A DNA stretch of 64,000 nucleotides. Source: an uncultured Methanosarcinales archaeon. GTDB taxonomy: Archaea > Nanobdellota > Nanobdellia > Woesearchaeales > GW2011-AR15. Within the stretch, counting starts at the first letter, position 1, and each line of letters opens with the position of its first letter. Below are positions 39,678-57,295 of the stretch, piece after piece. A program made the translations under genes and the position numbers. The stretch lies in the NCBI GenBank assembly GCA_964441565.1, contig CAYTWW010000003.1, positions 60,037 to 124,036 of the forward strand, written 5' to 3'. The notes beneath the pieces are model-generated. The model was not told the DNA's origin, made no database searches, and worked only from the letters and a program-made list of their open reading frames with translations.

Positions 39678-40580
39678 TCAGATGCCCAGGTCCTGGGCTG
39701 TGAAAAGTATCCTTCCTGTGCAGACTCCTCCAGCAAGAGGCGGGATCTTGAGCTTCCAGAAGGTCGAGTTGGTCGAATATTCGATTGTCAGGTCATCGAA
39801 CCTGTGCTCGACCATAAGGCCGTCCATGATGAGTGGAGCGCTCGTGAGGAGGACCATCTCTGTGTTCCAGTCTGCACCTGAGGTCCTGTTGTACCTCTCG
39901 TTCGAGACAGGGATGTTCCCATAGGTGCAGTTCATCGCAAGGCCGTCTCCCGGGCTGACGCCGTATCCTTCAGTCAGTATCGTCAGATTCCTGTTGCCTG
40001 CGTTTGTGATGTTAGCGAGCTTGTCATCTGATATGTCGTTGTAGGCGAGATTCCCGAAATCGAGCTGGCCAGGGACATAGATGGCGACAAGAGGCCTTAT
40101 CTCCCCGAAGTCTGAGAGATTGCTGTGGTAAGCGTTCTCATCATCCTCCACAGTCACATTGCATATCCATTGCGTGGAGTTGTCTGCATAATACTGCACA
40201 GGGAAGGTGCAGAGGAAGTCCATCTGCCTGTCCTGGTCTGATTCCTGCGTGCAGCTTGTGTTCCAGTAGATCGTGTTGTTGTCCAGCGTGGAGTCTGGGT
40301 TCGCGACAGTGCTGAGATACAGCGAAGCATTCACAGAGAGGGTGTCGTTATCCCAGTCGAAGACGACTGCTGAGCAGTTGACTGTCACCTCTCCGTAAGA
40401 CTCAAGGTCTACAACGGCGTCGAGGACAGCATCCCTGACTTCAGGCCTTGCGTTCGTGATGTTCACTGTTGTGTTGATCTCCTGTGCCACGGTCGCGCCT
40501 GGCACGACGAGAAGCGCTACCCATAGCAAGAGGGCGAAAGAAGCTGCCGCGAGGCATATGATTGCATTTCTTTGGTTCAT
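39678..40580 (-). CDS. Secreted two-domain Ig-like protein 'P3' with about 15 N-glycosylation sequons
   Basis: I chose the start at the internal 'MNQRNAIICLAAASFALLLWVALLVVPGATVA' (ATG 40580, 2 nt after the upstream stop). Paralog of the distal part of the CDS at 6895-7755. Ends 'PPLAGGVCTGRILFTAQ'. Confidence 0.75.
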   Translation of the reverse strand: MNQRNAIICLAAASFALLLWVALLVVPGATVAQEINTTVNITNARPEVRDAVLDAVVDLESYGEVTVNCSAVVFDWDNDTLSVNASLYLSTVANPDSTLDNNTIYWNTSCTQESDQDRQMDFLCTFPVQYYADNSTQWICNVTVEDDENAYHSNLSDFGEIRPLVAIYVPGQLDFGNLAYNDISDDKLANITNAGNRNLTILTEGYGVSPGDGLAMNCTYGNIPVSNERYNRTSGADWNTEMVLLTSAPLIMDGLMVEHRFDDLTIEYSTNSTFWKLKIPPLAGGVCTGRILFTAQDLGI

Positions 40581-40582
40581 TT

Positions 40583-41320
40583 TCACGACCTTATCTCCAC
40601 GTAAAAATAATATGTGGCCTGACCTGTAGACCCAGGAAGGCCGCTGTCGGCGACAATCGCCTGGAAATCGTATGTGACTGACTCGTTTCTGTAGGATTGT
40701 GAATCGCTCTCGATGATGGTCGCGTAGACCAGGCTCTCTCCATCTGACAGGAGGATCTCCTGGAAATCTGAATCCTCTGAGATTGCCTGTTCCTCGTCGC
40801 TGATCCATGTCGCTGTGCTTGGGCATGTGCTGTTCCCTATGAGGACCGAACCTACATACAAGGATGAGTGGGCGATATGGTTGAAGGTATGATTGATATT
40901 GTCTGCTGCGGTAACTGTGTGGTCGAGCTGGACCTGCTCGCCTGCGATGACTGAGCTGTCTGCGCACTCGATATCTGACCATGTGATGGAATTGTTCCTG
41001 GTGATGAAGACTGTTCCTGAAGGATCATCTATCGCGGTCCACTCGTAGATGCTGTAGTCAGAGGTATCTCTCAGGACAAGTGTTCCTGAGACATTGCCTA
41101 CATATGCTTTCCACTTGTTGTTCTGCTGCATGGTCGTGAGCACCAGGGTAGTGATTGTGCCTTTCCCATCTGTCCTGGATTCGGCAGGGGTGGCATTCTT
41201 TGTCGAATTCGAGATGAAGGTGATGGCGGCGCCTTCTGGATCAGCAGCAAAGGATAATTGGGTGAAGAGAGCCGCAGCTGCCAGGATGAAGGCCACTGCC
41301 ACCCATCTTGCTGATCCCAT
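40583..41320 (-). CDS. Secreted protein 'P2', paralog of P1 and of the C-terminal domain of the giant protein
   Basis: Signal 'MGSARWVAVAFILAAAALFTQLSFA'. Motifs 'KWKAYVGNVSGTLVLRDTSDYSIYEW', 'ADNINHTFN', 'FQEILLSDG', 'YDFQAIVA', C-terminus 'TYYFYVEIRS'. Confidence 0.8.
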   Translation of the reverse strand: MGSARWVAVAFILAAAALFTQLSFAADPEGAAITFISNSTKNATPAESRTDGKGTITTLVLTTMQQNNKWKAYVGNVSGTLVLRDTSDYSIYEWTAIDDPSGTVFITRNNSITWSDIECADSSVIAGEQVQLDHTVTAADNINHTFNHIAHSSLYVGSVLIGNSTCPSTATWISDEEQAISEDSDFQEILLSDGESLVYATIIESDSQSYRNESVTYDFQAIVADSGLPGSTGQATYYFYVEIRS

Positions 41321-41327
41321 AGGTCCT

Positions 41328-42089
41328 TTACTCCAGATCCAGATAGAAGTAATAGGTTGTCGCTGCAGTGTTCAAGGTAGCTCCTGACCTGCTTGATCCA
41401 TCCTCTCCTACAAGCATCTGGAAATCCACTGTATTTCCGTTGAATCCCATCGGGTCTGTGTCATTGAACCAGTTGTCATTCTCGATTATCGCTGTGTAGA
41501 CTAGCTGATAGCCGTCTGTCTGCAGGAGGATCTCCCTGAACTCCTGGCTCTGGTATGCATCATCCACATATGTGAACTGCGATGGACATGTGTCCTGATC
41601 GATCGAATACATACCTACCGAGAAATCCGGATGATCGCTTATGTTGAATGTGCTGTTGATGTTATCGACTGCATCCCATGTCATGTTATAGTACATGTGC
41701 CACCTGTCGAGGTTCGCGTCATAGTCGAAGCATTCTACTGTCGACCAGTCAGGTGATGCGCCGCTTGTGTTGCAGACTGCATATACCTCTCCCTTGGGCT
41801 CCATGTTTGGCCAGTCATACATCGTCCAATTGGATGCGTCATCGAGTGTGATTATTCCTGTGACCTCTCCGAAATAGCCCTGCCAGTGCCTGGTAGGAGA
41901 CTTTCCGAAGAGCGATATGTTCGTGACGTTTCCTGCCTGCGCACTGTGCGCCTTGGGCTGATATACAGAAGCATCGAACTTCTGGTTATCTTCCTGTGTT
42001 ATCCTATCAGATCCGATAGGGACTTCCTGTGCAGCGCAGATCGCGGCTGCAAGGACCATGACTGCCAGGAGCAGCATCAGTTTTTTCAT
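41328..42089 (-). CDS. Secreted protein 'P1', paralog of P2
   Basis: SD 'AGGTGA' precedes the ATG at 42089. Signal 'MKKLMLLLAVMVLAAAICA'. Motifs 'HWQGYFGEVTGIITLDDASNWTMYDW', 'VDNINSTFN', 'FREILLQTDG', 'VDFQMLVG', C-terminus 'TYYFYLDLE'. Confidence 0.8.
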   Translation of the reverse strand: MKKLMLLLAVMVLAAAICAAQEVPIGSDRITQEDNQKFDASVYQPKAHSAQAGNVTNISLFGKSPTRHWQGYFGEVTGIITLDDASNWTMYDWPNMEPKGEVYAVCNTSGASPDWSTVECFDYDANLDRWHMYYNMTWDAVDNINSTFNISDHPDFSVGMYSIDQDTCPSQFTYVDDAYQSQEFREILLQTDGYQLVYTAIIENDNWFNDTDPMGFNGNTVDFQMLVGEDGSSRSGATLNTAATTYYFYLDLE

Positions 42090-42094
42090 CCTTC

Positions 42095-42313: not shown

Positions 42314-42344
42314 TTTGTTATTTCTGTATATCTAATCAATAGTT

Positions 42345-42429: not shown

Positions 42430-43212
42430 TCAGAATGGTTCGAGCATACGTGATAGCTCTTCCCTAGAACGGGCTGATTCCATCAGCATGGCAACTTCCG
42501 GGAGTCCTATCACATCCTTCACCCAGCAGGCGAAGTCATGCCTTTCCTGATTGACATGGTGGTTGAAGACTGCCTCGGGCATGGCAGCTATGGCTTTCTT
42601 CATCTGATAGAAGCTCGAGAGCGTCCCTCCCCCGTGGAGCCTGAACTCGTATCCTGGAGCGACATGTGCGCTCTTATGATGATCGACAAATGCAGCTTTC
42701 AGCTCAGAGATCCGCATATCCATCTGAAGTTCCAGCTTCTGCAGCTCATCTCTCGCGGTCTCGAATGAGAGCTGATGCTTCTGCCATTCCACCTCAAGCT
42801 GGTGGAGTTCAGCCATCCTGCTCACAAGCTCCGCATCCCTGTTCGAGCTGTAGTGCCTGTTGTGCCAGAAAGATTTCATCTCAGAGAGTATGTCCGAGCT
42901 TATGACCTGAGAGGACACTGTATGAGATATCCTGTCTCCTATACCTGACATCAGACCGCTGAAGTAGCCTGGGGGCATATTAGTCAGCTGGGATGGAGGG
43001 GTGCTGATGACCGGCTGCTCTTCCTTGACTTCCTTGTTAGAGAACAGCGCATCAAGCTGTGGAAGCTCAGAGGGTATGCCTGTGGGCGGGGCGACATGGA
43101 CCATGCTTTTCGGAAGCTCTGGTATAGTGACATCCGGTTCGGATCGCTGCTGCTTTGGGCGCAGCATACTGAAGTCGATGCAGATGTTGTCGAATAGCCC
43201 CATACCAGGCAT
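42430..43212 (-). CDS. Cytoplasmic coiled-coil protein with the C-terminal 'HHVNxERxDF' domain
   Basis: No TM or signal peptide. Central heptad-like region. The C-terminal 75 aa ('FRLHGGGTLSSFYQMKKAIAAMPEAVFNHHVNQERHDFACWVKDV') align with the tail of the 864-aa protein. A TATA-like box lies ~27 nt upstream. Confidence 0.7.
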   Translation of the reverse strand: MPGMGLFDNICIDFSMLRPKQQRSEPDVTIPELPKSMVHVAPPTGIPSELPQLDALFSNKEVKEEQPVISTPPSQLTNMPPGYFSGLMSGIGDRISHTVSSQVISSDILSEMKSFWHNRHYSSNRDAELVSRMAELHQLEVEWQKHQLSFETARDELQKLELQMDMRISELKAAFVDHHKSAHVAPGYEFRLHGGGTLSSFYQMKKAIAAMPEAVFNHHVNQERHDFACWVKDVIGLPEVAMLMESARSREELSRMLEPF

Positions 43213-43461: not shown

Positions 43462-43487
43462 GCAGATGCTCGTAGACGTAGATTTGC

Positions 43488-44057
43488 ATGAGCAATAGCA
43501 TCCTCTGGAAGGACAGCAGCATCAACGCCTACAACCTATTTGTCATCGTCTCGACGATGATCCTGCTCCTTTTGACTCCGCTCATCCCGCTCGCCTTCTG
43601 GAGGCTCGAGACTGTGAAGATGTATATAATCCTGTTCTATATCACCAATGGAAGCATATTCCTCTTCATCCTCTCACAGCTGCTCTACGAGAAGGGGAGA
43701 TGGCTGTACTTTAACCAGCATGGCATCGTCATCAGGTGGCAGCCGGAGACCGGGCCTGACTATGAGATGTTCGGCTGGCACCACCTGAAGAGGATCAATA
43801 TCCTGGATTCGTGGAGTCCGAAGAGCTACCTGAGATGGAAGAGGATAAAGAACAACATGTCCTACAGCCTCTTCTTCGCGAGCGCTCTCTACAACTACAT
43901 GCTCATACTCGAGACCAAGAAGGACAAGATATATTTTGTGGGCATCAATGATTATGATAAGTTCTTCAAGATACTTAGCGAGACAAAGCACAGGAACCAG
44001 TACCTGAAGGACCTTCCTATCATGAATCTATCAGCGCATCGCTTCAATTATATATAG
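43488..44057 (+). CDS. Membrane protein (2-3 TM plus small soluble domain), unknown
   Basis: Hydrophobic N-terminal half. AT-richer than its neighbours. Converges on the 3' end of the giant gene with a 1-nt gap. Confidence 0.5.
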   Translation: MSNSILWKDSSINAYNLFVIVSTMILLLLTPLIPLAFWRLETVKMYIILFYITNGSIFLFILSQLLYEKGRWLYFNQHGIVIRWQPETGPDYEMFGWHHLKRINILDSWSPKSYLRWKRIKNNMSYSLFFASALYNYMLILETKKDKIYFVGINDYDKFFKILSETKHRNQYLKDLPIMNLSAHRFNYI

Positions 44058-44058: not shown

Positions 44059-47000
44059 TCATCTCAGTTCTGTGTAGAGGGCGACTGCCACTGTGTCAGG
44101 ACCTTTATAGTCCCTCAGGCCGGAAGGTATCCGGAACTCGAAATCATATTCCCCCAGCATGCCCTGGCCGTGAGCAGCCTCTGTGACGAAGACCACATCC
44201 TGCGTGCCGTCGAACTCTTCCCCGTCTGCGCTGTCCCAGAGTATGCCTGTCTGGAACTGGCTTGTGTTGGTCGAGTTGACGACTGGGACGGATGCGATCA
44301 GAGAGCCGAACACAACATATGTCTTCTGCTCCTTTATGCTGCCTGATGCAGTGTAGCTATTGTTTATCGAGTCAGAGTTGTTCTCTATCATCATAGCCTC
44401 ATCAAGCTGCCTGAAGTCTGCGAATGATTCAGCGCCGAGAGCTGTCCTTCCCAAGGCTACCAGATCTCCCCAGGATATGATGGAATCCTGGTCTGCTGCG
44501 AATATGTTTGTCCCTGTGAGGTTCTCGCTTGACCAGGAATAGACAGTGGATGTATTGTCCTTGATCAGGAGCGAGCCAGCCAGGTCGCCGTAGATCGTAT
44601 TGTAGCTGCCGACAATGACTGATGCGCTTTCCCAGTTGTCTGCCTCATCTATCTCGGGAATAGAGCCGCCTGTCTCGATATCAGGGTCGCATATCACGAA
44701 GATCTCGTAGGTGTTGGGGATGCCTGCGATGAATGATGTGTTGAGAGTCATGTTCTCATGGGGGAGGAGACTTATCGTGAAGTTCTGTATCTGTCTTCCC
44801 TCAGAGTAGTTTCCGTGGAAGAACTGGACAATGAGATCTGTTGCGCTCGATTCCCCTGAATTCCCTATCGTCGCATTGACAGAGATGTTAGAGCCTTCGG
44901 AAGCAGTTGAGGGAAGCGACATCGAGATGACATAGATGTCAGGGAGAGGGATCGTGAAATCCCATGTCAGGCTCGTGTTCCTGTTCCCGGCATTGTCGAT
45001 GCATGTCACATTCCAATGATGGACCTGGCTTGTCAGGACCTCGACTGATGCTGTGACTGGGACACCTGAGAGCACAGGGAGATCTATCTCTTCGGCTGAA
45101 TCATCGAGCGTGATATTGCAGAGCATCGAGCTCTGGTCAATGGCTGTGAAGTTGAGGACAGCTGTGCCATCTGATAAAGCGGCTCCATCATCTGGGCTTG
45201 AAAGGATTATAGATGGAGCGACAGTGTCAACATATATACTGACCACAGTGGAGTTCTTCCTGTTGCCTGCTGAGTCAGCTGCCTCAAGGATGATCTCATG
45301 CTCGCCGTCTCCCAAGGCGAGCAGGCTGGCTGCGACTATTGTGGAGGAAGCAGCTGTCCCCTCCCTGTTGATTGTCCCATCTGCATAGAACCTGTAGTCG
45401 AGCAGTGTGTCCATGTTGTCTGTTATATTGAAGCTTATCGTTGGTGTCGATGAGGCATGGCTGCTACTATCCTGTGTGAGGATCACTGGCTCCGGCTGGG
45501 CAAGATCGACGTATATGTCCCTCGGCTGCGATATGCCGAGGTTCCCAGATGTGTCGTAGCAGCTTATTTCCCAGACATGATGCCCTCCGAGCGATGTCGC
45601 GGTGAGGTTACTGATACCAGATGTCCAGATATCATCGGATGTGCTGTCCGGCGTGCCGTCTATGAGAAGGGAGCAGTTACCGATGCCTGTGTTGTCTGAC
45701 GCATTGAAGAAGAATGCCGGGCTTGGGATGTTTGTCCAGTTGCCTGCTGATGGTGAGATCAATGCAATGACAGGAGCTGTAGCGACTGTGAGAGTCCTCG
45801 ACGAAGATGGGCCGATGTTGCCAAGGTCATCTGCGCAGGTGACATTCCAGTCATGTACTCCATCTGACAGTCCTGACACTGTTGCCTGGTGGACTGAACC
45901 GCTCATTCCTGAGCTGGTGCGTTGGATATCAGTTGCATCAGATACTGTCAGGTAGCAGGACAGGAGGACAGGATAGGTGTCTGATGGTGTGTAGTTGAAT
46001 ATCACTGTCCCCTCTGAGACAGTCGCTCCTGCGCCTGGATAGCCCAGCGTGACAGACGGACCGATTGTGTCATGCGTGAGCCTGCGGACAGGGGGAGCGT
46101 ATGTGTTTGCATCAGAATCCAGGCAGCGCACTGTCCAGTTGTGCTCTCCTTCTGAGAGTCCTTCCATGAGGAATGAATTTGCCTGGCCATTCAGCGGGGC
46201 TGATGTGGACTGGTTGTCCTCCGAGTCGAACACCAATGTGCATGAGCTGAGATTGTAGGTATCATATGGCCTGTATGTCAGCAGGACAGAGGAGGTCCTG
46301 TTCCTGCTGTTGTCCTGAGGTGCCAGGAGAGCGACTGATGGCGGAGCCTCGACTGTGAAGAAGACAGGCTGCGTAGTGTTTGTGTTGTTCGCAGTGTCCC
46401 TGCATGCCACAGTCCAGTTGTAGGAGCCGTCTGTCAGGTTGACTGCAACGCTCCTTGCGGTATTGTTGGGTGCGCTGAGCGCGATGTCGTGACCTTCTGT
46501 CCTCACACTACAGACCATGCTTGCTGCGATGTTATCGAGGGCTGAGAAATTGAGCTGGAGCTCATTTGTCGAGATGACCTGGCCCTGCTGGGGAGCGGCA
46601 GCGATGATCTTCGGGTAGGTGGTATCTATCGTGAATGTGCGTTCCTCTGTGCTTGCTGAGAGGCTGTCAGTGTCAGTGGCGTTGATGTGCCAGGAGTAGA
46701 GTCCGTCAGCGAGCTGCGACAGCGAGAATGTGTTCTCGATCCCATTTTCCGGAGTCGTGTCAGTCTGGTTCAGTATTCCGCCCAGGGATAGCGTGGTGTT
46801 AGCAAGAGTGCCTGAATCGTGCGGCAAGTAGACCAGGTCGATAGCGCTCTGGTTGCTGAATGTGCCGGAATCAGGGGAGACTGCCGTCACAGTGGGAGCG
46901 CCTGACGAGATGAAGAGCCATTCGAGGCTCTTGTTGTAGTTTCCTGCATCATCACGGCATTCGACATACCAGTAGTGGTTCCCTTCCCCTGAGACTGTGA

Positions 47001-50000: not shown

Positions 50001-53000
50001 TGAAGCCCACTTCTGCAGGCTGTCCGTCGACTTCTGTGGAATTTGCCCGAACAGCTGTGATCCTGTCGAGATATCCTATGCCAGAGCAGCTGCCCCATGC
50101 TGTAGAGTTCTCCTGGCACTGGATCAGAGATATGGCTGGAGGACGGTTGGAAAGGATGGATACGATCGATGAATTCACCTGCGGACCTGATAAGGACTGG
50201 TCCATCGGTCTTGCTCCGCATCTCCAGGTCTCAGCAAGGCTTGTGTTAGCTGAAGGCATGATGGCTGCTTGGGCGACTCCCGGTGATGCGGTGATACTTG
50301 CAATGCTGTAGATGATCCCATTCCTGTACCATGTCAGCTCTACGTCAAGCTCATCGCCGTTGTCATCACCTGCGGCGAATTCGCAGACCAGGTCATCGTC
50401 AGGTACAGGGAACGCTGGCAACAGGGTGATATTATGGATGAAAGGGGACCTGTCAGGGATGATCGTTATGTTGATATGGCTTGACTCTGTAGTGCCTAGA
50501 CCTGGATAGTCGATCGGAGTGAGGAGCATGAAGAACTCATGCACTGAGCCTTCTGCGCCTGTCGAATTGACTGACCACTCTGAGATGCATATGTCTCCTG
50601 CTGACATGTTGGAAAGGCAGGCAAGATCTGAAGGAGTGTGAGGATTCGAGTCTGTAGTGTAGAATGGCTGGGAGGTCTCCACAGGGATTATCGCCTTAGG
50701 TCCCTCCATCCCGCCGACAGCAACGTTGATGGTGAACTCGTCTCCCAGGAATGGATAGCATTCATCGCCGATGGAGTTGCCTGCGCCAGCGTCTCCGGAT
50801 GCGCCTGAGCAGCTTGTGGGATTGTAGTATGCGTGCATCTCATTCCCCCCTGTGTTCTCGTCATATTCTGCGCGCATCCTGTAGTATCTGCCCTTCTCGA
50901 ATGTGTAGGTGCCTGACCTGCAGGTTGTTCCCTGGCAGAAATGATTATTGACCACCTGCGTGCCTTCCACCCTGATCTCTGATCCGTCGTCTGAAGCTGT
51001 CGCCAGCACCTGCACGCCTGAGTCAGGCGCCTGGAAATAGCACCACATGTTATGGTAGAAGGTGTCCTGGTCTGCGCCACATGAGATGGCTGGGAAGCTC
51101 AAGTCTGCATACACTCCTGACATGTCCATGTTCGCTAGCGTTATGTCGCCGGATGTCCCGCAGGTGCCTGAATATGCATTGTCGCATGCGTATCCCCAGC
51201 CTGTCGAAACAGGGAGAAGCTCCAGCTCTCCGAAATCAGGGTCATGGTAGAGGAAGCATTCCTTTGATCCTGATGCCAGGAAGTCAAGCTCTGCAAGGGC
51301 TTCAAGGCGGGTGATAGATAGGCCTGATGTCTCGAGGGCATAGGCATCCATCCGCACCCTTGTCCCATTGCAATAGAAGACCGTCCGGTTCTCCTGGCTG
51401 AGAGGGAGGATACCTGGATCAAGCGATATGTTGAACCTGACATGCTCTGAAGTCCTTGCAAGACCTGCTGGCTCTGACAGCGTGATCAAGTGCCTGTAGC
51501 CATACCTGAGATCATCCCACGGCGCTGGCGGATCAAGTGTGGCATTGAAGCTTCCGCATTCCCCATCAAGACAGGAGATCCTTGCACTGAAGGTGAAGAA
51601 CCTGTCCTGCGTGGCGTTGTAGTCAGATGCTGGAGAGATGAGCTGTAAAGAGCATGTCCCCCAGGGCACATACCATGCAGAGGTGTTGGTCGCTGAGACT
51701 CCTCCCTCGTCTGTGCAGGTGACTGAGAGATTCCATGTTCCCGAATCATTTATCCTGATGTCAGGCGAATCCAACATGAATTGGCCAGTGGCATTGTCAT
51801 CTGTCGTGCCTGAGAAGAACGTGATGCGATCGTCAAGGTTCCCAAGCGAGAATGTGGCATTCCGGACAGTGCCATCTGGATCCCAGCAGCTGACGCGCAC
51901 ACGGGAGATGACATCTGAGAAACCGATGTTATCGCATGATGCCCAGACAGTGCTATCCTCCTCGCACTCGATGGACTGTATCTCCGGAGGTCTGCTGGCC
52001 AGTATCGTCCTCGCGCTTGAGTTCACAGCTGTCCCCCAATCTATACTGTCATAAGGGAGGACCTCGCAGATCCAGGCTTCTCCGACTGTGAGATTGCCTG
52101 TGCCAAGCTCTGCAGTCACGACTATTCCGTCATCCACATCAACCTCCTGGGTCTGATTGATCATGCCATCCTTGTACCAGTTGACACGGGCTGTGAGGAT
52201 GTCTGGATTCCTGTCTGTTATGATGAACTGGCATTGAAGAGGTGTCGTGAGAGAGGGCGCCTCAGGATTAAGCACAACCTGGCTTGCTACAGGGAGGGTG
52301 TTGTTGACAAGGAAGGGATAAGTGTGGTTCAATGGAACTCCTGAGCTTGACTGGAGGACCTCTCCAACATCATCCAGGAGAGCAGCATAGATGAGGTAGC
52401 TGCCTGCAGATGAACCGGCTGTGTCCCAAGGGACTGGGTTCCAGGATCCTGACAGCTGGAGAGCTGAGCCTGATGGGATGGAACTCAACTGGGAGGAAGA
52501 GAGATCATCGACGATCGTATCCACCAAGACAGGGGATCCGGTCCTGTTCTCAAGAAGCTGCATGAGCAGGTATCCAGAGATGTCTGTGCTCCCAGTGTTC
52601 TGGATGACTGAGGAATATGAAGTGCTTTCCTGGAGCTGCCCCTCCTGGACATGAGCATCCTCCATCACGCTGGCATAGAACTGCAGGGCATATGAATAAT
52701 CAGCATCCTCTGCTGTCGTCACATAGTAGAAGTTCGCGACCAGATAATCCTGGTTCGCGAGGAAGTCACTGCTTCCGCTATAGCCGTTCTCCCAGCCTGT
52801 CGAGTGCTCGGTCCCATCATACCAGTTGGGATGCATAGAAACGTTGACACCTGCTCCTGATGCGTTCCTGGCAAATTTCCTGACCACGGCGAAAGCATCT
52901 GTGGGAGCGCCTACGACACGATATGCAAGATAGCCGGATTCACGATCATGAGCACTGCTCCTGTCTGTCCTCTCAGAGGCGCCTGTACCATCCATGGTGT

Positions 53001-56000
53001 CTGTCTCTGTGTATCCAGGGTATGATCCTGTCACAAGGAAATTGCCTGATGCGATGTTGAGATCATCCCCGATCTGCATGCCTTCGCTGGCAGACATCCT
53101 GAAACCTTTGTATGAGCGGATCTCCCTGCTTCCCCTGTAGACATGATACGTGGTGTTGGCCTGGGAGACGTCTGTGAGGCTTGTTATCCCATCGACAAAT
53201 ATCGAGCATCGGACAGGGCCGCATGACCTGCTCCTGATAGTCGCTGTGAATGACTGGTCATCCCAGTGGTCTGTTGTCCTGAAATAGTTCCAATACCAGT
53301 TCTCTGTCACATCGAGCGAGCTTCCCTGCCTGCTCCTGATATCTTCGATGACTCCTGAATCATCCAGCGTGACAGAGAGGAATTCATTCGCGATGACTGT
53401 GCTGCCTGCGTTGAATGTGTGGTTGAATACCGGGCTTGTGTAGTTGGCTGCAGGCTTGGCTTCTGTGTCAAGATACAAGTGATATGTCCTATCTGATCCT
53501 GCGAGGGTTTCTTCATCCATGATCCAGATGAGCTGGACAACAGCATTCGTGCCCCAGTCTGTTGCTGGGAAGGTCGCGACCTGGAGCGGCACCTCGACAG
53601 GCGAATCGTCCCTCCACTCGATGAGCCTGAAGGAATCATTGTGGATCCCTGTGAGATATCTGCTGAGATTGATCGTGTATTCCACAGGGTAATCTGATCT
53701 GTTCGCTGACCCTGCAGAGACTGTCACCGGTATGCGGTATCTCCAAGAGTGGTCCCACCATATCGCCTCGTCTGATGCCAGGAGGACCTCAGTGTCTGCA
53801 TCATATGATGGATGTTCTGTCTTCAGGGAGAGGGACGCATTGCCTTCCACAAAGAAGTAAGGATCAAGGATCGTCTCTACTCCGAATGTGTCATTCGCGA
53901 GGATCGCGAAATAGTATGAGCCTATCTCCCATGGCCTGAAGAGGAAACTGAATATGTCCTGGCCTGCAGTGATCATGGTCTCTAACCAGTTCCTCCCTGA
54001 GGGCGATGTGATGTTTATGTGCACATCATCAAGACCATTTATGTCAGTGACGGTCGCTGTCAGGTTGATCCACTGGCCTGGACCTGTCAACTGATTGTCG
54101 GAGACATCTGTGATAACTGGCCCTGTTGTCTCGCCAGTCACATTAAAGCCTATAGTGACATTATGGATGCGCTGGGGAACCAGCCAGTCTCCCCTGTCGA
54201 GGCCGATCCTGTACTGGACATACCTGTTGGGTGGTATGGGAAGCGCCTGGTATGATTCACCTGAACAGGAGGGATCGTCGCAGCTCCTTATGCTGACGTT
54301 GGGCGCTGAGAGACCGCGCCTGTAGAGCTGGCTGACTTCTTCAGATGACAATGCGCGTCCCTTTATGATCATGATCTCGTCGAGGCTTCCTGCATATCTG
54401 GTCGCATAGTTCTCATTCAGGATGCCAATGGTCAGGTTCGATACTGTGTCTGGGATCGAAGCAGCGGTCTCAGATGCAGTGATGTCCAGAGTGCCATTGA
54501 CATAGACCTTAGCTCTCTGCGCTGATGCGAGCGTGCCATCATAGACTATCGCCACATGGTACCACCTGTTCGGTGAGAAGGCGGCATGTGTCGAGAAGCG
54601 GTTGTCATTGTTGACAAGGTCGACAAAAAGCCTGCTTCCGGTATAGAGGAAGATACTATAAGATGTCTGGGTGTTTATCCCCATACGCTTGGAAAGGATC
54701 GCCCTAGCAGAGCCGTCGACCAGCGAGGGATTCATCCAGAATGATATCGTCATCCTGTCTGTGCTGTCAAGGGTTGCGCTGTCAGGTATCCTTGCGTACG
54801 AGGTCGCTGCTCCTGAGAATGCTACCGAATGATTGAAGAGAGCTGATTGGCCATACGAGAGTGCGCCTGGTGCCGCAGCATGGTTGGATTGGCCGCTGGA
54901 ATCGATAAGTCCTCCTGACTGATCATCCATGTGCAGAAGAAGAGTGGCACCAGATGTGTCAGCTGGCTGTGAAAAACCGGCTTCTCCTGCCCCTGGCGCA
55001 GGAAGGTTGCATCTGTAGCAGATCTCCTGGGCGAGGGAGATGTTGTTCCATGTGGAGATTGCGCCTGTGTCAAACACAATGCTCTCGAATGATCCTGTCG
55101 ACGCATTGAGCTCGATGGCACGCCTGACTGTGTCATAGAAGACACCTGTCATCGTCCCGTTTGTCTGCGGATATCCGAATACAAGCTTGCCTGCTGCGAG
55201 GTATGTGAAATTATAGTCAGGATCTGCTGCGAAATACCATGGCCTTGCCTCTATGTATTCGCCGTCATCTATCAGTGCAGGGCCTAGTTGGTATAGTGCG
55301 GGAGCTATCTTAGGGACACTTGCAGAATATGAGATGGAAGAGCTGTTCTCAAGTCCATGCCATGTGAGCGTGGTGCGGGAATCCTCCTCTCTGACATCTG
55401 CGCCGCCATCATCCTCCACCTCGATCCCCGGGGGAAGGATCTCGGTGAATGAGAATGGTCCGGAGTCAGCTGAATATATCCTTGCCCTGACATGGAGGAG
55501 GGACTGCCATGGATCCAGGGCAAGGGGCGCTTCCCTGATGATATCATAAGGTATGCTTGAGCTGACCTCGAAAAAAGAGACGAAAGATTGGTCGACATCT
55601 GCTGCCGAGGCATGCATCGATACATGATATGTGCCTTCTCCCAGGGTCTCGTAGTAAAGACGGTATGTGCCTCTACCTATCCTTGTGAGATCCTCATGCG
55701 ATGAGATGTCGCCATCTGGAGTTGTGATATTCATCTGTATGATCGCGTCGTCTGAGAGATATCCTTTCGTATCGAGGACAAACACAAGTATCTCGGCCAT
55801 CTCCCCAGGCCGATATACAGGCCTTCCTGTGTTGAATGCAGCGACGCCTGCTTCTGCGAATGCAGGATCAGCAGGGCTGAGAGGGATTATGTATTCCTGG
55901 CCAGGGATGAGGTCGAGCACCTTCTCCCATGTGCCTACGCATGTCCTTGTGTCAAAGACATAGTCCTTGCATTTCAACAGCTCTGTCCCTGTCGCGACCG

Positions 56001-56718
56001 CCCGCAGCTCTCCTTCATCGAAATCAAGGCCTGAAGGATCTATCGCATATGAACGTGCTATCTTCTTCCCACCGATATCCTGGATGTCGAGGTCAGCGTA
56101 TCTCAACTTAGAGGCATCTCCACGGACACCACGGAGGCTTATGTCCTTCCCTGATAACCTTATCCTAGCAGTCCTATCCTTTGATCCTGGCTCGCGATCC
56201 GCTGGATCGGCAGCAGGCTCGCCTGATGTGACAATGAAATGATCCTGCTCAAGCCAGGTTCCTTCCCTGAACAGATCTGCTGTGCATCTCCCTTCCTCCA
56301 GAGGGATGAACATGGTCCTCTTTCCGGATGGGATCAACTCATATCCTTTGCTTCCACATGCTATCCTTATGGTATAGCCCTCTCCAGGCGACTCTATCCA
56401 TGATGCGACACCTTCCTGCATCTGGGGGACAGACATCAGATCATCTCCGACAAAAAAGCTTGATTCTTCGATGATCTCTCCTCCCTGGAACAGGTAAAGG
56501 GAGTGGAGGCCTCTCTCGACAGGGATGAAGATCCCCTCATCTCCAGGCGATTCTACGACATACTTCCTTGACATGCTCTCGATCTCAAGCCTGTCAGCAG
56601 GCTCGCCTATAGAGATCCTGACTGTCTCGAACTCTGAGTACCTCTGCTTGTCAGTAGAAAGGGCTGATGCTGCTGCGCAGAGCAGGATGAACAGCAGAAA
56701 TGCACGCGACTGGCTCAT
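44059..56718 (-). CDS. Giant secreted multidomain surface protein/adhesin (4219 aa)
   Basis: Uninterrupted 12.66-kb ORF with SD 'GGAGG' before the ATG.
- Signal: 'MSQSRAFLLFILLCAAASALS'.
- MG2-like 'RPVYRPGEMAEILVFVLD'.
- LamG_3-like region, aa ~590-800 ('MTISFWMNPS...WYHVAIVYDG...VYVNG').
- Three DUF2341-like 'W..(R)YR' units (aa ~988, ~1734, ~2349).
- Two PA14-like units ('GRYYRMRAEYDENTGGNEM', 'DRYYPLEIGFAENTGGESL').
- 13 Ig-like repeats.
- CARDB ('ISVNATIGNSGESSATDLIV').
- P1/P2-like C-terminal domain. Confidence 0.9.
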   Translation of the reverse strand: MSQSRAFLLFILLCAAASALSTDKQRYSEFETVRISIGEPADRLEIESMSRKYVVESPGDEGIFIPVERGLHSLYLFQGGEIIEESSFFVGDDLMSVPQMQEGVASWIESPGEGYTIRIACGSKGYELIPSGKRTMFIPLEEGRCTADLFREGTWLEQDHFIVTSGEPAADPADREPGSKDRTARIRLSGKDISLRGVRGDASKLRYADLDIQDIGGKKIARSYAIDPSGLDFDEGELRAVATGTELLKCKDYVFDTRTCVGTWEKVLDLIPGQEYIIPLSPADPAFAEAGVAAFNTGRPVYRPGEMAEILVFVLDTKGYLSDDAIIQMNITTPDGDISSHEDLTRIGRGTYRLYYETLGEGTYHVSMHASAADVDQSFVSFFEVSSSIPYDIIREAPLALDPWQSLLHVRARIYSADSGPFSFTEILPPGIEVEDDGGADVREEDSRTTLTWHGLENSSSISYSASVPKIAPALYQLGPALIDDGEYIEARPWYFAADPDYNFTYLAAGKLVFGYPQTNGTMTGVFYDTVRRAIELNASTGSFESIVFDTGAISTWNNISLAQEICYRCNLPAPGAGEAGFSQPADTSGATLLLHMDDQSGGLIDSSGQSNHAAAPGALSYGQSALFNHSVAFSGAATSYARIPDSATLDSTDRMTISFWMNPSLVDGSARAILSKRMGINTQTSYSIFLYTGSRLFVDLVNNDNRFSTHAAFSPNRWYHVAIVYDGTLASAQRAKVYVNGTLDITASETAASIPDTVSNLTIGILNENYATRYAGSLDEIMIIKGRALSSEEVSQLYRRGLSAPNVSIRSCDDPSCSGESYQALPIPPNRYVQYRIGLDRGDWLVPQRIHNVTIGFNVTGETTGPVITDVSDNQLTGPGQWINLTATVTDINGLDDVHINITSPSGRNWLETMITAGQDIFSFLFRPWEIGSYYFAILANDTFGVETILDPYFFVEGNASLSLKTEHPSYDADTEVLLASDEAIWWDHSWRYRIPVTVSAGSANRSDYPVEYTINLSRYLTGIHNDSFRLIEWRDDSPVEVPLQVATFPATDWGTNAVVQLIWIMDEETLAGSDRTYHLYLDTEAKPAANYTSPVFNHTFNAGSTVIANEFLSVTLDDSGVIEDIRSRQGSSLDVTENWYWNYFRTTDHWDDQSFTATIRSRSCGPVRCSIFVDGITSLTDVSQANTTYHVYRGSREIRSYKGFRMSASEGMQIGDDLNIASGNFLVTGSYPGYTETDTMDGTGASERTDRSSAHDRESGYLAYRVVGAPTDAFAVVRKFARNASGAGVNVSMHPNWYDGTEHSTGWENGYSGSSDFLANQDYLVANFYYVTTAEDADYSYALQFYASVMEDAHVQEGQLQESTSYSSVIQNTGSTDISGYLLMQLLENRTGSPVLVDTIVDDLSSSQLSSIPSGSALQLSGSWNPVPWDTAGSSAGSYLIYAALLDDVGEVLQSSSGVPLNHTYPFLVNNTLPVASQVVLNPEAPSLTTPLQCQFIITDRNPDILTARVNWYKDGMINQTQEVDVDDGIVVTAELGTGNLTVGEAWICEVLPYDSIDWGTAVNSSARTILASRPPEIQSIECEEDSTVWASCDNIGFSDVISRVRVSCWDPDGTVRNATFSLGNLDDRITFFSGTTDDNATGQFMLDSPDIRINDSGTWNLSVTCTDEGGVSATNTSAWYVPWGTCSLQLISPASDYNATQDRFFTFSARISCLDGECGSFNATLDPPAPWDDLRYGYRHLITLSEPAGLARTSEHVRFNISLDPGILPLSQENRTVFYCNGTRVRMDAYALETSGLSITRLEALAELDFLASGSKECFLYHDPDFGELELLPVSTGWGYACDNAYSGTCGTSGDITLANMDMSGVYADLSFPAISCGADQDTFYHNMWCYFQAPDSGVQVLATASDDGSEIRVEGTQVVNNHFCQGTTCRSGTYTFEKGRYYRMRAEYDENTGGNEMHAYYNPTSCSGASGDAGAGNSIGDECYPFLGDEFTINVAVGGMEGPKAIIPVETSQPFYTTDSNPHTPSDLACLSNMSAGDICISEWSVNSTGAEGSVHEFFMLLTPIDYPGLGTTESSHINITIIPDRSPFIHNITLLPAFPVPDDDLVCEFAAGDDNGDELDVELTWYRNGIIYSIASITASPGVAQAAIMPSANTSLAETWRCGARPMDQSLSGPQVNSSIVSILSNRPPAISLIQCQENSTAWGSCSGIGYLDRITAVRANSTEVDGQPAEVGFNLTNIPDTRTLLDMSTPDDSTEYFVLDNPDVLVNDSGYFNLTATCIDNNASMTVSSVLWNVPWGTFSSALVDPVANTNVEKNEYFDFTTLFSCSGGECGSINASLDPDAWDAPDFRYRSDVRIVESRGLQRNDTHVLVSFSIPEQRLMHENGTIMYCAGRQVPWDGYARSSSGSWITGLEGIAEINISASSSLDCHIYMDPSHNGTELLPHTTGWDYVGATGISGGNVVDLTPSQVTCYVRDPDGEIPSGAGVCGAVENIKLNEWCYFKSPLSASIYFKTGSDDGSILYHNGSVNVYNDGAHGVTWQDNVCASCGGSLALQRDRYYPLEIGFAENTGGESLFNRWATAAGDDSSGNVIDAECYPYYGDEWQLSVTAYQPIERFKGILPVGSGYPFYVLEPNARQPSDLSCLMDMRSGDTCQVSWTVNATGTYGTSHIFYSIATPLSYPGFVSEKNSTKINITIADANMVPPSVTLSSPQSNFATIQGTVEFNCSATDNQGLENITLYANFSGSFLPNSSASLSGLSGSASFPVQLPEGIFTWNCLAYDDDGNHASAANRTVIVDRHPAYFSLQQPYQGQGFHSSTVQVNYTVIDNIDRSLLCNVTVDSTVQQSIVTPNNTLIQRTFSSMSVGTHSYNISCVDDAGNRNTSSTTSFEILDLYPGVVLMTQDNMRFTTNDISLVFNATDNLGISEASLYIGSSLNQTRSGIVLSANETFNLTIAEGRYRWSVTVNDSSGLTNTTAQRTFFVDMTPPTISITAPADHYISGTPSVAINFTPYDNVATSVTCNITVNGTVVHPDFNVNNATYTSRVTSFPDGTSEWNITCRDPAGNSATTLSRLMNVSAIPQVTLVSPASGYSQTAKDITLTYHAADNTGFTKCELLVDGRINKSNATITNNANSVFYLEVPQERSYEWSVNCTDTTGLFTQSASRAFTVDSTPMSIVLHSPPNGTSILGSTQYFNFTVSDVLDPVMTCNLSVDNVRTGNLDFSAPDGTVIERSFTVSGEGNHYWYVECRDDAGNYNKSLEWLFISSGAPTVTAVSPDSGTFSNQSAIDLVYLPHDSGTLANTTLSLGGILNQTDTTPENGIENTFSLSQLADGLYSWHINATDTDSLSASTEERTFTIDTTYPKIIAAAPQQGQVISTNELQLNFSALDNIAASMVCSVRTEGHDIALSAPNNTARSVAVNLTDGSYNWTVACRDTANNTNTTQPVFFTVEAPPSVALLAPQDNSRNRTSSVLLTYRPYDTYNLSSCTLVFDSEDNQSTSAPLNGQANSFLMEGLSEGEHNWTVRCLDSDANTYAPPVRRLTHDTIGPSVTLGYPGAGATVSEGTVIFNYTPSDTYPVLLSCYLTVSDATDIQRTSSGMSGSVHQATVSGLSDGVHDWNVTCADDLGNIGPSSSRTLTVATAPVIALISPSAGNWTNIPSPAFFFNASDNTGIGNCSLLIDGTPDSTSDDIWTSGISNLTATSLGGHHVWEISCYDTSGNLGISQPRDIYVDLAQPEPVILTQDSSSHASSTPTISFNITDNMDTLLDYRFYADGTINREGTAASSTIVAASLLALGDGEHEIILEAADSAGNRKNSTVVSIYVDTVAPSIILSSPDDGAALSDGTAVLNFTAIDQSSMLCNITLDDSAEEIDLPVLSGVPVTASVEVLTSQVHHWNVTCIDNAGNRNTSLTWDFTIPLPDIYVISMSLPSTASEGSNISVNATIGNSGESSATDLIVQFFHGNYSEGRQIQNFTISLLPHENMTLNTSFIAGIPNTYEIFVICDPDIETGGSIPEIDEADNWESASVIVGSYNTIYGDLAGSLLIKDNTSTVYSWSSENLTGTNIFAADQDSIISWGDLVALGRTALGAESFADFRQLDEAMMIENNSDSINNSYTASGSIKEQKTYVVFGSLIASVPVVNSTNTSQFQTGILWDSADGEEFDGTQDVVFVTEAAHGQGMLGEYDFEFRIPSGLRDYKGPDTVAVALYTELR
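44944..48603 (-). repeat. Array of 13 Ig-like repeats (~93-95 aa each), alternating between two subtypes, within the giant gene
   Basis: Repeat starts are at aa 2708, 2803, 2898, 2990, 3083, 3177, 3272, 3366, 3458, 3551, 3647, 3740 and 3832. Shared signature: 'PP.(I/V).(I/L)..P' ... 'F(N/T)...D' ... 'W.(I/V).C.D..GN'. Confidence 0.8.
48604..52308 (-). repeat. Tandem duplication of a ~617-aa multidomain module within the giant gene
   Basis: aa ~1471-2087 and ~2088-2705 align end to end, e.g. 'RPPEIQSIECEEDSTVWASCDNIGF' with 'RPPAISLIQCQENSTAWGSCSGIGY', 'CLDGECGSFNATLDP' with 'CSGGECGSINASLDP', and 'PSDLACLSNMSAGDICISEWSVNSTG' with 'PSDLSCLMDMRSGDTCQVSWTVNATG'. Confidence 0.8.
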
Positions 56719-57295
56719 CTTCTCCCTCCGATGAGCCTCGTCGCCATCAGCCTCTCCCAGATATCCTGCAGCAGCTCATAGTACTTCTCCGGCGAATACA
56801 GCACTGTCCCGGCAGCTGCCCTCCTGCCTGATGCCAGCTCCTCCAGGAAGCCGGGGACATCATAGAAGACTGCGCTGCGCAGGCTCGGGAACCTGTCTGC
56901 GACAGCATGCCTGTCATTCAGATATTCAAGGACGACGATGATATCTTTCTCTTGGGCAAGGACAGTCCGTATCCGAAATTCCCTCCTGGCCTTATCGATA
57001 TCACCGATAGGCAGGCGGCTCTTCTTCAGGAGCTTCTCCTTCTCCCTGGCATTCAGGAGAGAGAGCATGGCCTTGGCCTTGTCTGATCCTATGCCTATCG
57101 AGCAGAGGTATGATCTTCCGACGACGACCTTGGTGAGGATGCCTGATCTGAGTAGGGAGGATACCTTCCTGTTGATGTTTGGGTACGTCCGACCGAGCCG
57201 CCGGGATATGCTGTTTATGCTGTCGATGAGAGTGATGTCCCTATAGAAAAGCTGGATTATCTCCTCATCAAGGCGGCCTTCTTTCGCGATGTCAT
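56715..57295 (-). CDS. Winged-helix DNA-binding protein translationally coupled to the giant gene; N-terminus lacks an in-frame canonical start
   Basis: The ORF track starts at ATG 57068. The same frame is open up to 57323 and encodes a clear wHTH ('SINSISRRLGRTYPNINRKVSSLLRSGILTKVVVGRSYLCSIG') with no ATG/GTG/TTG. The ATG at 57295, ~22 nt after a 'CTATATATA' box, is in a different frame. The stop overlaps the giant gene's ATG (ATGA at 56715-56718). Confidence 0.6.

Follow-up and report, generated by a model that had tools for sequence, protein, structure and literature searches.

The locus described here raises the question of whether a giant, adhesin-like protein and two small secreted proteins encoded near it are built around one and the same domain and, if so, whether that domain joins them at the cell surface. 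Few uncultured archaea are as widespread as Woesearchaeota and their relatives, and these organisms are believed to spend their lives attached to other cells. A first-pass annotation of the window (the whole 64,000-nt stretch of DNA analysed here) had proposed that the last ~185 residues of the giant match the small proteins P1 and P2 over their entire mature length, as a tip adhesin matches the subunits of its pilus. The genes on which that proposal was built, those of the giant, P1, P2, P3 and a small protein, were all confirmed, all on the minus strand; the gene for c260 separates that of the giant from those of the subunits:

44059..56718, minus strand: the giant, an adhesin-like, putatively secreted protein of 4219 aa (open reading frame and translation, Pfam)
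44626..44943, minus strand: CARDB domain of the giant, aa 3926-4031, immediately preceding the shared domain (Pfam)
44062..44616, minus strand: shared C-terminal domain of the giant, aa 4035-4219 (HMM match, hhalign)
42430..43212, minus strand: c260, a cytoplasmic protein of 260 aa (translation)
42095-42268/42313, minus strand: small cytoplasmic protein of 57-72 aa, first gene of the tight operon (translation)
41328..42089, minus strand: P1, 253 aa (translation, HMM E=1e-72), with Sec signal at aa 1-19, N-terminal extension at aa ~20-67 (nt 41889-42032) and core at aa ~68-253 (nt 41331-41888)
40583..41320, minus strand: P2, 245 aa (translation, AlphaFold model), with Sec signal at aa 1-25, extension at aa 26-67 (nt 41120-41245) and core at aa 68-245 (nt 40586-41119)
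39678..40580, minus strand: P3, 300 aa, whose real start is an internal ATG (MNQRN...)

The operon is as tight as had been reported: the small gene and P1 overlap or lie 5 nt apart, P1 and P2 are separated by 7 nt, and P2 and P3 by 2 nt. Between the end of the giant gene and the start of the small gene lie ~1.75 kb, in keeping with the earlier figure of ~2 kb.

P1 and P2 are paralogs of one another (BLASTP E=1e-30, 34% identity over 206 aa). The C-terminal end of the giant, put forward earlier for BLASTP and HHalign comparison (as aa 4036-4219), matched P2 significantly in a pairwise BLASTP search (E=7e-5 over 80 aa) and the P1/P2 family by profile; the pairwise match to P1 was not significant (E=0.37), and profiles were therefore needed. 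A P1/P2 family profile matched the single giant sequence at E=2.9e-5 over 138 columns, a profile of the giant domain matched P2 directly (E=1.6e-5), and profile-profile comparison with hhalign aligned the two families at 97.8% (E=1.2e-12, 159 columns). With deeper alignments these values became 98.7% and E=3e-16 over 161 columns, reaching the last residue. Conserved aromatic and acidic positions match between the two families, and the four blocks of residues that had been paired earlier (YG-LAG...YSW, DSIN-SYT, FQTGILWD and YDFE...LYTELR) were aligned in the same pairing in both hhalign runs. The extent of the match is smaller than first claimed: the core is homologous, from about residue 68 onwards, and the first ~42 mature residues of P1 and P2 have no counterpart in the giant. 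We conclude from these alignments that the domain is common to P1, P2 and the end of the giant by true homology. A chance or compositional match, with no shared domain at all, would fit the non-significant comparison with P1 and the N-, S- and T-rich composition of all these proteins; it is refuted by the profile-profile score over 161 columns and by the direct match of the giant-domain profile to P2, and its probability is negligible.

That the domain falls outside named families, as the first-pass annotation had suspected, was borne out by Pfam, NCBIfam, PDB sequence and Foldseek searches. No family was found for P1, P2, P3, the small protein, c260 or the C-terminal domain in sequence and profile searches of Pfam, NCBIfam and the PDB, every member of both alignments included. 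P2 gave a weak, sub-threshold Pfam match to B_lectin (E=0.048), and none of 32 family members matched TasA/Peptidase_M73 in Pfam. Foldseek searches with the P2 model returned no structural neighbour in the PDB (best E=0.66, TM ~0.1-0.17) or in the viral BFVD (best E=0.078); this leaves folds of the TasA, AbpA, thread, cannula and Ig-pilin types unsupported, and neither an Ig-like nor a pilin-like fold could be demonstrated. P1 and P2 likewise had no Pfam, NCBIfam, PDB or Foldseek match to archaeal S-layer families or solved S-layer structures. For the giant's own C-terminal domain, an AlphaFold model built from an 11-sequence alignment had a pLDDT of 51, too poor for fold comparison. In the literature we found no description of the domain, its free-standing paralogs, the conserved operon or any filament of Woesearchaeota.

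The part of P1 and P2 that the giant lacks is itself conserved. Both proteins are ~25 kDa and consist of a conserved ~42-aa N-terminal extension followed by a ~175-aa beta-rich core. An extension profile showed that the extension is conserved in 229 of 248 P1/P2-family open reading frames, beginning right at the predicted cleavage site; the same profile matches no giant, and the hhalign alignments start at P2 residue 68. Nothing significant resembling the extension was found in P3, s587 (a neighbouring membrane protein described below), c260, the small protein or the giants. In a few P3 orthologs, sub-threshold matches to the extension profile (E 0.5-5) lie just past the signal peptide. In the AlphaFold model of the P2 monomer the core has a pLDDT of ~80-97 and the extension one of 39-60, a low value that a flexible linker alone could also produce.

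Signal peptides were assigned by reading of the sequences. The N-termini of P1, P2 and the giant are Sec-like, as had been stated, with a basic n-region, an h-region of ~18-20 aa, a small-x-small cleavage site and conserved mature residues. All 32 N-termini that we read are of the classical Sec type and none carries a class III (prepilin) signal, and neither the giant nor P1, P2 or P3 ends in a hydrophobic segment that could serve as a C-terminal transmembrane (TM) helix, both again in agreement with the earlier reading. A type IV pilin-like filament was rejected on the Sec-type N-termini and on the cluster, which holds no PilB/PilC-type ATPase or platform genes; no chaperone or usher genes were matched there by Pfam or NCBIfam either. 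P1, P2, P3 and the giant are rich in N-glycosylation sequons (2.9-5.0 per 100 aa) compared with the other window proteins checked (0-0.7). Judging from signals and sequons, these four proteins look extracellular.

From N- to C-terminus, the giant comprises a Sec signal, an MG2-like region, a LamG-like region, two PA14-containing modules of ~615 aa each, ~13 Ig-like repeats, the CARDB domain and the shared C-terminal domain. Pfam matched Big_13 (1e-30), Laminin_G_3 (2.7e-23), PA14 (1.8e-15) and CARDB (1.4e-7), as well as Big_3_3, Big_7 and MG2. The two modules reflect an internal duplication (aa 1476-2086 versus 2092-2702, 38% identity), the Ig repeats occupy aa ~2709-3932, and the protein carries 128 sequons in all. 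With its signal peptide and its tandem Ig-like, CARDB and carbohydrate-binding-type domains, it classes as an Ig-repeat/CARDB adhesin-like surface protein. The pairing of CARDB with the shared domain is kept across the family: on C-terminal fragments of relatives, the precomputed Pfam assignments name CARDB and no other family, and it abuts the shared domain in five of nine longer family members, the five with the best CARDB match at their C-terminal end. The shared domain itself ends in a near-invariant family motif, V-x-[FL]-Y-x-E-[LI]-[KR]-COOH. Two further genes border that of the giant:

56715..57068, minus strand: cytoplasmic-looking open reading frame of 117 aa, overlapping the giant's start codon by 4 nt (translation)
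43488..44057, plus strand: membrane protein of 189 aa, convergent with the giant gene (translation)

The 117-aa frame has no homolog in any fetched locus, most of which end inside the giant gene. The 189-aa membrane protein is matched by a homolog in this place in no more than three loci, the closest distinct ones, and is probably not a core part of the system. A MutS2-like ATPase (37915-39636) was considered as an assembly ATPase and rejected, its position being kept only in the closest relative (two overlapping copies of one contig). Scans of the window for tRNAs and Rfam families gave no matches.

The association of giant and operon extends far beyond this window. Sampling of 58 Woesearchaeota/Nanoarchaeota species assemblies gave 2-6 free-standing P1/P2-like genes per genome, several hundred representatives of P1/P2 clusters are known, and the C-terminal version of the domain is found in 809 protein clusters (50% identity). 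Of the best 150 cluster members, 149 have it no more than five residues from the C-terminus. Complete-looking members of the giant family range from ~600 to 7246 aa, 79 of 157 sequences having at least 1000 aa; in the nine such proteins checked, the remainder consisted of Ig, CARDB or MG2 domains only, with no enzymes. Co-occurrence in related genomes had been suggested as a check; linkage of the giant gene to the operon is conserved, in both search directions, in many Woesearchaeota/Nanoarchaeota genomes. Of the 25 P2-homolog loci whose 10-kb flanks were complete, 15 contain a large open reading frame ending in the domain and the other ten show no giant over that distance; searching in reverse, from the C-termini of giants, found c260 and a P1/P2-like gene downstream. 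Linkage is kept across loci whose P2 homologs are only 39-65% identical to P2, and several giants of differing size with the same C-terminal domain can stand inside a single locus.

The conserved order is giant, c260, small protein, P1-type, P2-type, P3. The P1-type subfamily is always the first of the pair and the P2-type the second, followed by P3, and this fixed order points to non-redundant roles. Homologs of the small protein lie directly upstream of P1-type genes in 14 loci. P3, which has seven Cys, 15 sequons and the motif NTTVNITNxxP, is represented by homologs in 52 loci, for the most part immediately behind a P2-type gene; its N-terminal hydrophobic segment, with a conserved Trp, would be either a signal peptide or a signal-anchor. 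P3 was also considered as a divergent P1/P2 paralog, an idea rejected with hhalign (40% over 9 columns). Homologs of c260, which has a Pro-rich N-terminus, a region reading as coiled-coil, a conserved C-terminal domain and neither signal peptide nor TM segment, occur in 43 loci, typically between giant and P1-type genes, a count that the repetitive helical region may have inflated in part. On the opposite strand, beyond P3, lies a candidate anchor:

36155..37918, plus strand: s587, 587 aa (translation)

This protein consists of a signal peptide, CWB2-like repeats, an Ig-like region, a C-terminal TM helix and a cytoplasmic zinc ribbon, in that order. Its homologs are found in 33 loci (up to 851 bits); CW_binding_2 was matched in six of 22 members (best E=1.5e-4), and zinc-ribbon matches were obtained too. 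It contains no sequons, and a role as membrane anchor or receptor of the assembly is speculative.

Recurrence of this arrangement in dozens of related genomes makes it probable that giant attachment proteins are held by a surface assembly of a new kind. It is somewhat more likely than not that the shared domain mediates co-assembly of the giants with P1 and P2. As to the form of the assembly, we tentatively favour a lineage-specific cell-surface module of Woesearchaeota-type DPANN archaea, in which a strand-linked P1/P2 fibre would carry the giant at its distal end. Cores and extensions would bind in trans, the extension of one subunit docking onto the core of the next, in the manner of donor-strand polymers that need no chaperone, and P1 and P2 would for that reason form a fibre or a short stalk. 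The giant could accept an extension and donate none, which would place it at the distal end with its N-terminal MG2, LamG and PA14 domains facing outward to bind host or substrate. The cell-proximal base might be P3, through its hydrophobic segment, and/or the TM-anchored s587. An extension present in P1 and P2 and missing from the giants is the pattern expected of a tip adhesin that accepts its neighbour's strand and donates none. The tip-adhesin analogy first drawn for this locus is favoured by the subunit-homologous end of the giant and by the extension confined to P1 and P2; the Foldseek search with the P2 model gave no Ig-pilin match, and the cluster yielded no chaperone or usher genes. 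A more specific reading, a strand-exchange filament tipped by the giant, is possible and rather less likely than not. Much the same caution applies to the wider proposition that the P1- and P2-types represent a new chaperone-free class of archaeal filament with a new fold, specific to Woesearchaeota/Nanoarchaeota, linked through the N-terminal extensions and capped by interchangeable giants of up to ~7000 aa through an extension-less core.

We rank the filament first, ahead of a two-dimensional lattice and a simple envelope-anchor domain. Homology and synteny would be just the same if P1 and P2 formed a lattice (an S-layer or surface coat) in which giants replace a subunit through their C-terminal domain and the extension acts as a linking arm or as a tether to the membrane or s587. 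P1 and P2, being glycoproteins to judge by their sequon density, would suit a lattice, as would giants of differing size with one common anchor domain in a single locus and the nearby s587, which combines a TM anchor with repeats resembling CWB2, an S-layer anchoring domain in Clostridioides. Several points nonetheless make it an unlikely reading. Mature P1 and P2, at ~220 aa, are small for archaeal S-layer proteins. Sets of 2-6 or more paralogs per genome, some of them paired with their own HTH regulators, are more like sets of pilins and minor subunits than like S-layer genes. Separately annotated 'S-layer protein genes' are also among the top transcripts in a Woesearchaeota metatranscriptome (PMC11606122), and these may themselves encode CARDB proteins.

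The strictly C-terminal position of the domain, its terminal motif, the wide range of cargo sizes and the lack of a detected pilin-like fold in the Foldseek search with the P2 model would also suit a docking module that binds lipid, glycan or s587 in the manner of SLH or CWB2; P1 and P2 would then be small surface proteins whose function resides in the extension, and there would be no polymer. This too we consider unlikely, since a free-standing anchor with a conserved 42-aa peptide is hard to explain as cargo, a fixed pair of P1-type and P2-type with P3 suggests a multi-subunit structure, and no ligand-binding family was detected. It is more improbable still that the domain was merely shuffled and that P1, P2 and P3 are independent secreted proteins, for example lectins or effectors used on hosts, that never contact the giant. 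Surface-protein genes do often cluster, and both the full-flank loci without a nearby giant and the weak B_lectin match of P2 could be read in this way. Against it stand the linkage kept at low P2 identity and the fact that the same core positions, terminal strand included, are conserved in both families, which argues for a common molecular function over mere descent.

Among known systems, the favoured filament resembles in layout the chaperone-usher pili of Gram-negative bacteria (FimH/FimG/FimA, PapG). There, too, receptor binding falls to N-terminal domains of the adhesin (the counterparts here would be MG2, LamG and PA14) and its C-terminal domain shares ancestry with the structural subunits, an N-terminal extension is present on the subunits and missing from the adhesin (FimH is without the donor strand of the pilus subunits), and several subunit paralogs are encoded in one operon in fixed order. 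Unlike those pilins, P1 and P2 show no sequence or Foldseek similarity to Ig-like pilins; the organism is a single-membrane archaeon without periplasm, chaperone or usher; the ~175-aa core exceeds a pilin domain; and the giant is 10-20 times larger than the adhesin. TasA-TapA-SipW of Bacillus and archaeal AbpA/AbpB (PMC9245690, PMC9674648, PMC10151520) are likewise Sec-secreted and chaperone-free, with a mature N-terminus that acts as donor strand and that would be a candidate for this role here, and with an accessory protein that has extra beta domains and is a proposed nucleator, anchor or adhesin. They differ in that P1/P2-family members have no Peptidase_M73 match in Pfam and the P2 model has no Foldseek match to them, in that AbpA is found in Thermoproteales and Thermofilales (PMC9245690) and not in DPANN, and in that the woesearchaeal giant, in the place of the accessory protein, ends in the very core domain of which the subunits are made.

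Sulfolobus threads and Pyrodictium cannulae (PMC9715654; bioRxiv 10.1101/2024.12.30.630787) are, like the structure considered here, archaeal, Sec-dependent and glycosylated, as judged for P1 and P2 from their sequons. Both are chaperone-free donor-strand polymers, which our locus parallels in being without ATPase or type IV pilus machinery, although no sequence or structural similarity to P1 and P2 was detected. We know of no giant adhesin with a subunit domain described for either. In SLH, CWB2 and SlaA/SlaB stalk systems one modular domain attaches many large surface proteins, and a CWB2-like, TM-anchored protein, s587, belongs to the conserved neighbourhood; the shared domain is unrelated to SLH and CWB2, however, and it also occurs as free-standing paralogs with an extra conserved peptide. 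The SPEARE proteins of Nanohaloarchaeota are likewise very large, secreted, multi-domain proteins of small-genome symbionts and are thought to mediate host contact, and large extracellular proteins have been noted in Woese- and Pacearchaeota (PMC8204110). For these other giant surface proteins of DPANN archaea we found no report of the C-terminal domain, free-standing paralogs or operon.

As far as the sequences can tell, the ~180-residue shared domain and its conserved operon are real and so far undescribed. At the least, annotation gains a new domain family whose place at the C-terminus is fixed and whose partners are conserved, and the locus supplies concrete parts: a family of adhesin-like giants, matching small secreted subunits and a conserved operon. 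If these parts co-assemble, the structure at the cell surface and its fold family would both be new, the way in which a wall-less cell keeps hold of proteins 4000-7000 residues long would be explained, and P1/P2, P3 and the C-terminal domain would become markers with which to find and compare attachment systems in metagenomes. Were the filament reading true, it would be the long-sought host-attachment organelle of a very abundant uncultured group.

A conserved block of four genes, the last of which is s587, adjoins the operon. Its first three genes are:

34902..35372, plus strand: membrane protein of 156 aa resembling type I signal peptidase, Sec11/SipW type (motif, profile)
35372..35886, plus strand: two small genes (translations), one for a helical, charged protein of 71 aa (35372-35587) and one for a TM protein of 100 aa with a Cys-rich ectodomain (35584-35886)

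The 156-aa protein shows the motif order SMQP...HRV...GD by reading of the sequences, its family profile matches SEC11C (E=0.0019), SPase I 4nv4 (E=0.0086) and SEC11A, and one homolog matches Pfam Peptidase_S26 (E=1e-3). The gene is present in 13 loci and in the window stands ~4.3 kb away from the operon, on the P3 side, a possible parallel to tapA-sipW-tasA, where a Sec11/SipW-type signal peptidase gene lies near the Bacillus subunits (PMC9245690). Its membership in the system is uncertain, and it may be a housekeeping enzyme. Homologs of the 71-aa and 100-aa proteins occur in 7 and 11 loci, respectively, and their genes lie just upstream of the s587 gene both in the window and in loci L001, L006, L010 and L016.

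The giant, a 4219-aa adhesin-like secreted protein, ends in a domain (aa 4035-4219) that is homologous to the core of two small secreted proteins, P1 and P2, encoded in a nearby operon. The genes and the conserved end of the giant are placed as follows:

44059-56718, minus strand: giant, ORF of 4219 aa
44062-44090, minus strand: C-terminal motif, last 10 codons of the giant, conserved family-wide
42430-43212, minus strand: c260, ORF of 260 aa (cytoplasmic protein)
42095-42268/42313, minus strand: small protein, ORF of 57-72 aa
41328-42089, minus strand: P1, ORF of 253 aa
40583-41320, minus strand: P2, ORF of 245 aa
39678-40580, minus strand: P3, ORF of 300 aa from an internal ATG

The paralogy of P1 and P2 is clear from their sequences (BLASTP E=1e-30, 34% identity). 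In pairwise comparison, the last 184 aa of the giant match P2 over 80 aa (E=7e-5) and give no match to P1, while a profile built from P2, P1 and 30 homologs recognises the giant tail (E=2.9e-5). When profile was compared with profile, the P1/P2 family and the giant-type domain aligned over 159 columns (97.8%, E=1.2e-12), and deeper alignments (120 and 155 sequences) gave 98.7% and E=3e-16 over 161 columns, reaching the last residue. Chance similarity is excluded. The four matching blocks proposed in the first-pass annotation are paired in this alignment exactly as it had them; its further claim, that the giant tail aligns with the whole length of mature P1 and P2, holds for the core from about residue 68 and fails for the first ~42 mature residues.

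Both families are large and unnamed. Searching with P2 returned 436 matches and, among the matches listed, all are 207-277 aa long and annotated 'hypothetical', and every named source is Woesearchaeota, Nanoarchaeota or an unclassified archaeon. Among species-representative genomes, scanning identified 237 P1/P2-like stretches, spread over 76 loci of 58 assemblies; within the DNA sampled, each assembly has 2-6 copies. An exhaustive profile search for the giant-type domain yielded 809 clusters (50% identity), of which 602 score E<=1e-30; the domain ends at most 5 residues from the C-terminus in 149/150 best matches, and the proteins reach 7246 aa (79/157 sequences are at least 1000 aa). Their last residues form a near-invariant V-x-[FL]-Y-x-E-[LI]-[KR]-COOH, with Tyr at -5 in 151/156 and Glu at -3 in 149/156 sequences, and such constant spacing from the free carboxyl end hints at a function for the terminus itself. 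With every alignment member scanned, neither family has a Pfam, NCBIfam or PDB sequence match, and Foldseek finds no neighbour in PDB or BFVD for the AlphaFold model of P2 (pLDDT 79.7; core ~80-97), in agreement with the initial reading of the domain as belonging to no named family. The model of the giant's domain is too weak for a comparison of folds (pLDDT 51), although its secondary-structure order resembles that of the P2 model. Only two exceptions to the usual architectures were seen: a 602-aa ORF in a related locus (L064:6292-8100, plus strand) that ends in one full P1/P2-type domain, has partial profile matches upstream and could be a fused or tandem gene, and a 1756-aa giant-type family protein (P0273) with the domain internal, at aa 1004-1192. 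Such natural fusions could aid modelling of subunit contacts.

Upstream of its tail, the giant contains MG2, Laminin_G_3, two PA14, Big_13, Big_7, Big_3_3 and CARDB domains (Pfam), the CARDB domain at aa 3926-4031 (Pfam/profile match) abutting the shared domain. A PA14-containing module of ~615 aa is duplicated (aa 1476-2086 and 2092-2702, 38% identity), each copy carrying one PA14 domain and conserved Cys patterns, and is followed by about 13 Ig-like repeats at aa ~2709-3932. This predicted architecture is that of an adhesin-like stalk whose putative carbohydrate-binding domains lie nearer the N-terminus. In nine other members of the giant-type family, the upstream domains are solely of Ig, CARDB or MG2 type.

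The small protein, P1, P2 and P3 genes form a tight four-gene run (small/P1 overlap or 5 nt; P1-P2 7 nt; P2-P3 2 nt), as the first-pass annotation had described. Its account of Sec-type signals without a C-terminal TM segment was likewise borne out: reading the sequences by eye, together with 32 aligned N-termini, gave a classical Sec-type signal peptide for each of P1, P2, P3 and the giant, and no hydrophobic C-terminal segment in any of the four. No class III signal was found in the P1/P2 family. N-glycosylation sequons are dense in these proteins (per 100 aa: P1 3.2, P2 2.9, P3 5.0, giant 3.0) and sparse in 14 other window proteins (0-0.7); the four are therefore likely N-glycosylated surface proteins.

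Gene order in relatives is large domain-ending protein, c260, small protein, P1-type, P2-type, P3. As for co-occurrence of P1/P2-like and giant genes, a large ORF ending in the domain is present in 15/25 loci with full 10-kb flanks, and 34 such ORFs turned up across all loci. Homologs of P3, c260 and the small protein occur in 52, 43 and 14 loci, respectively. The reverse search, from giant-tail homologs, recovered c260-like genes downstream in two loci (L080, L081) and, in L080, a P1/P2-like gene as well. Three subfamilies make up the free-standing P1/P2-like proteins, and their places are fixed: the first gene is P1-type or of the third type, the second is P2-type, and P3 follows. Extra P1/P2-like copies in related loci, a module absent from the window, each have a gene for a small HTH protein before them:

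L010:11880-12392
L016:11861-12358
L057:9343-9879 and 12527-13159
L032:4101-4631 and 5741-6403

These proteins have either 165-180 aa with two sigma70-region-4-like repeats or 210-220 aa of ArsR type, and their placement suggests separate regulation of the subunit paralogs.

A second conserved block of four genes lies near the operon, at 34902-37918:

34902-35372, plus strand: signal peptidase candidate, Sec11/SipW-like type I, a 156-aa membrane protein heading the block
second in block, plus strand: 71-aa protein, helical and charged
third in block, plus strand: TM protein of 100 aa, Cys-rich in its ectodomain
36155-37918, plus strand: s587, 587 aa, with signal peptide, CWB2-like repeats, C-terminal TM helix and cytoplasmic zinc ribbon

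The 156-aa family profile matches SEC11C (E=0.0019), bacterial SPase I (E=0.0086) and SEC11A, and by eye the catalytic-motif order SMxP...HRV...GD is kept (SMQP, HRV and GD in the window). s587 is strongly conserved (homologs in 33 loci, up to 851 bits) and, unlike its neighbours, has no sequons; CWB2-like repeats (PF04122) were matched in 6/22 members (best E=1.5e-4), and its Ig-like region is weakly similar to ArlF/ArlG. The block could possibly supply a processing enzyme and a membrane anchor for the operon products, and the peptidase candidate may be either a dedicated or the housekeeping enzyme. Between the P3 and s587 genes lies a gene for a MutS2-like P-loop protein (37915-39636, minus strand; MutS_V; TIGR01069 E=1.3e-19); it is syntenic next to P3 in the closest relative only and was therefore rejected as part of the system. 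A HicA/HicB pair additionally occupies this gap in L001.

P1 and P2 differ from the giant's domain in a conserved N-terminal extension (consensus EPEGA-I-YISNSTKN...R-D-KGTITT--L---QQN-K) that starts directly at the predicted cleavage site. Its profile matches 229/248 P1/P2-family ORFs and no giant. In the P2 monomer model the extension has a pLDDT of 39-60 versus ~80-97 for the core, and the giant's domain starts exactly where the confident core does. Subunits of chaperone-usher pili act as donors of an N-terminal strand; FimH, the adhesin at the tip, possesses a pilin domain but lacks that strand. Fibres of TasA and archaeal AbpA dispense with a chaperone and have the mature N-terminus as their donor strand (PMC9245690; PMC9674648). 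The anatomy of P1, P2 and the giant fits the donor-strand logic of both. As the reading that we favour, at less than even odds, we propose that the shared core would be a co-assembly domain, with P1 and P2 polymerising through extension-to-core contacts in trans, the giant accepting an extension, unable to donate one and so capping the distal end, and P3 and/or s587 forming the base. Of this picture, the data establish the homology, the domain architecture, the gene linkage and the extracellular signatures, while binding in trans, geometry and anchoring are inferred.

Other readings start from the same homology. Common descent of the giant tail and P1/P2 without any interaction would account for the shared core, and we hold it to be unlikely. 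The core could also build a two-dimensional lattice or S-layer that receives inserted giants, or be a plain envelope-anchor domain in all three proteins; each of these we consider improbable. As for capped assembly through the extension, its nearest counterparts in mode of working would be donor-strand pili with a tip adhesin and TasA/Abp-type fibres, although these are without sequence or fold similarity to P1/P2, and chaperone-usher pili have a chaperone and an usher, whereas none was found here. We regard the putative assembly in the window as a new, non-homologous version of a known principle, in which the adhesin and the subunits of a surface structure have a domain in common; that it constitutes a new class of filament is a tentative proposal. 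Literature searches turned up no account of the shared domain or of the operon, nor of a filament in Woesearchaeota. In a survey of DPANN protein families, most lineage-specific extracellular families were without predicted function (PMC8204110).

Loci syntenic with those of Woesearchaeota, including P1/P2, P3, s587 and giants, are present in many third-party MAGs whose title is 'uncultured Methanosarcinales archaeon' (L009, L010, L016, L019, L027, L029, L034, L036 and others), and the organism label on those records looks unreliable. Elsewhere in the window, a 566-aa membrane protein (28338-30038, minus strand) with multiple TM segments has, by eye, a putative heavy-metal-binding motif, GTTCDAC, near its N-terminus and a tail rich in Gly and Cys, with CGCGCGG at its end. 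The stretch 57936-62501, shortly past the giant gene, encodes a KaiC-like ATPase, a triple-PAS protein, a response regulator and a HAMP histidine kinase, a signalling cluster that is, to our knowledge, unusual in a small-genome DPANN archaeon.
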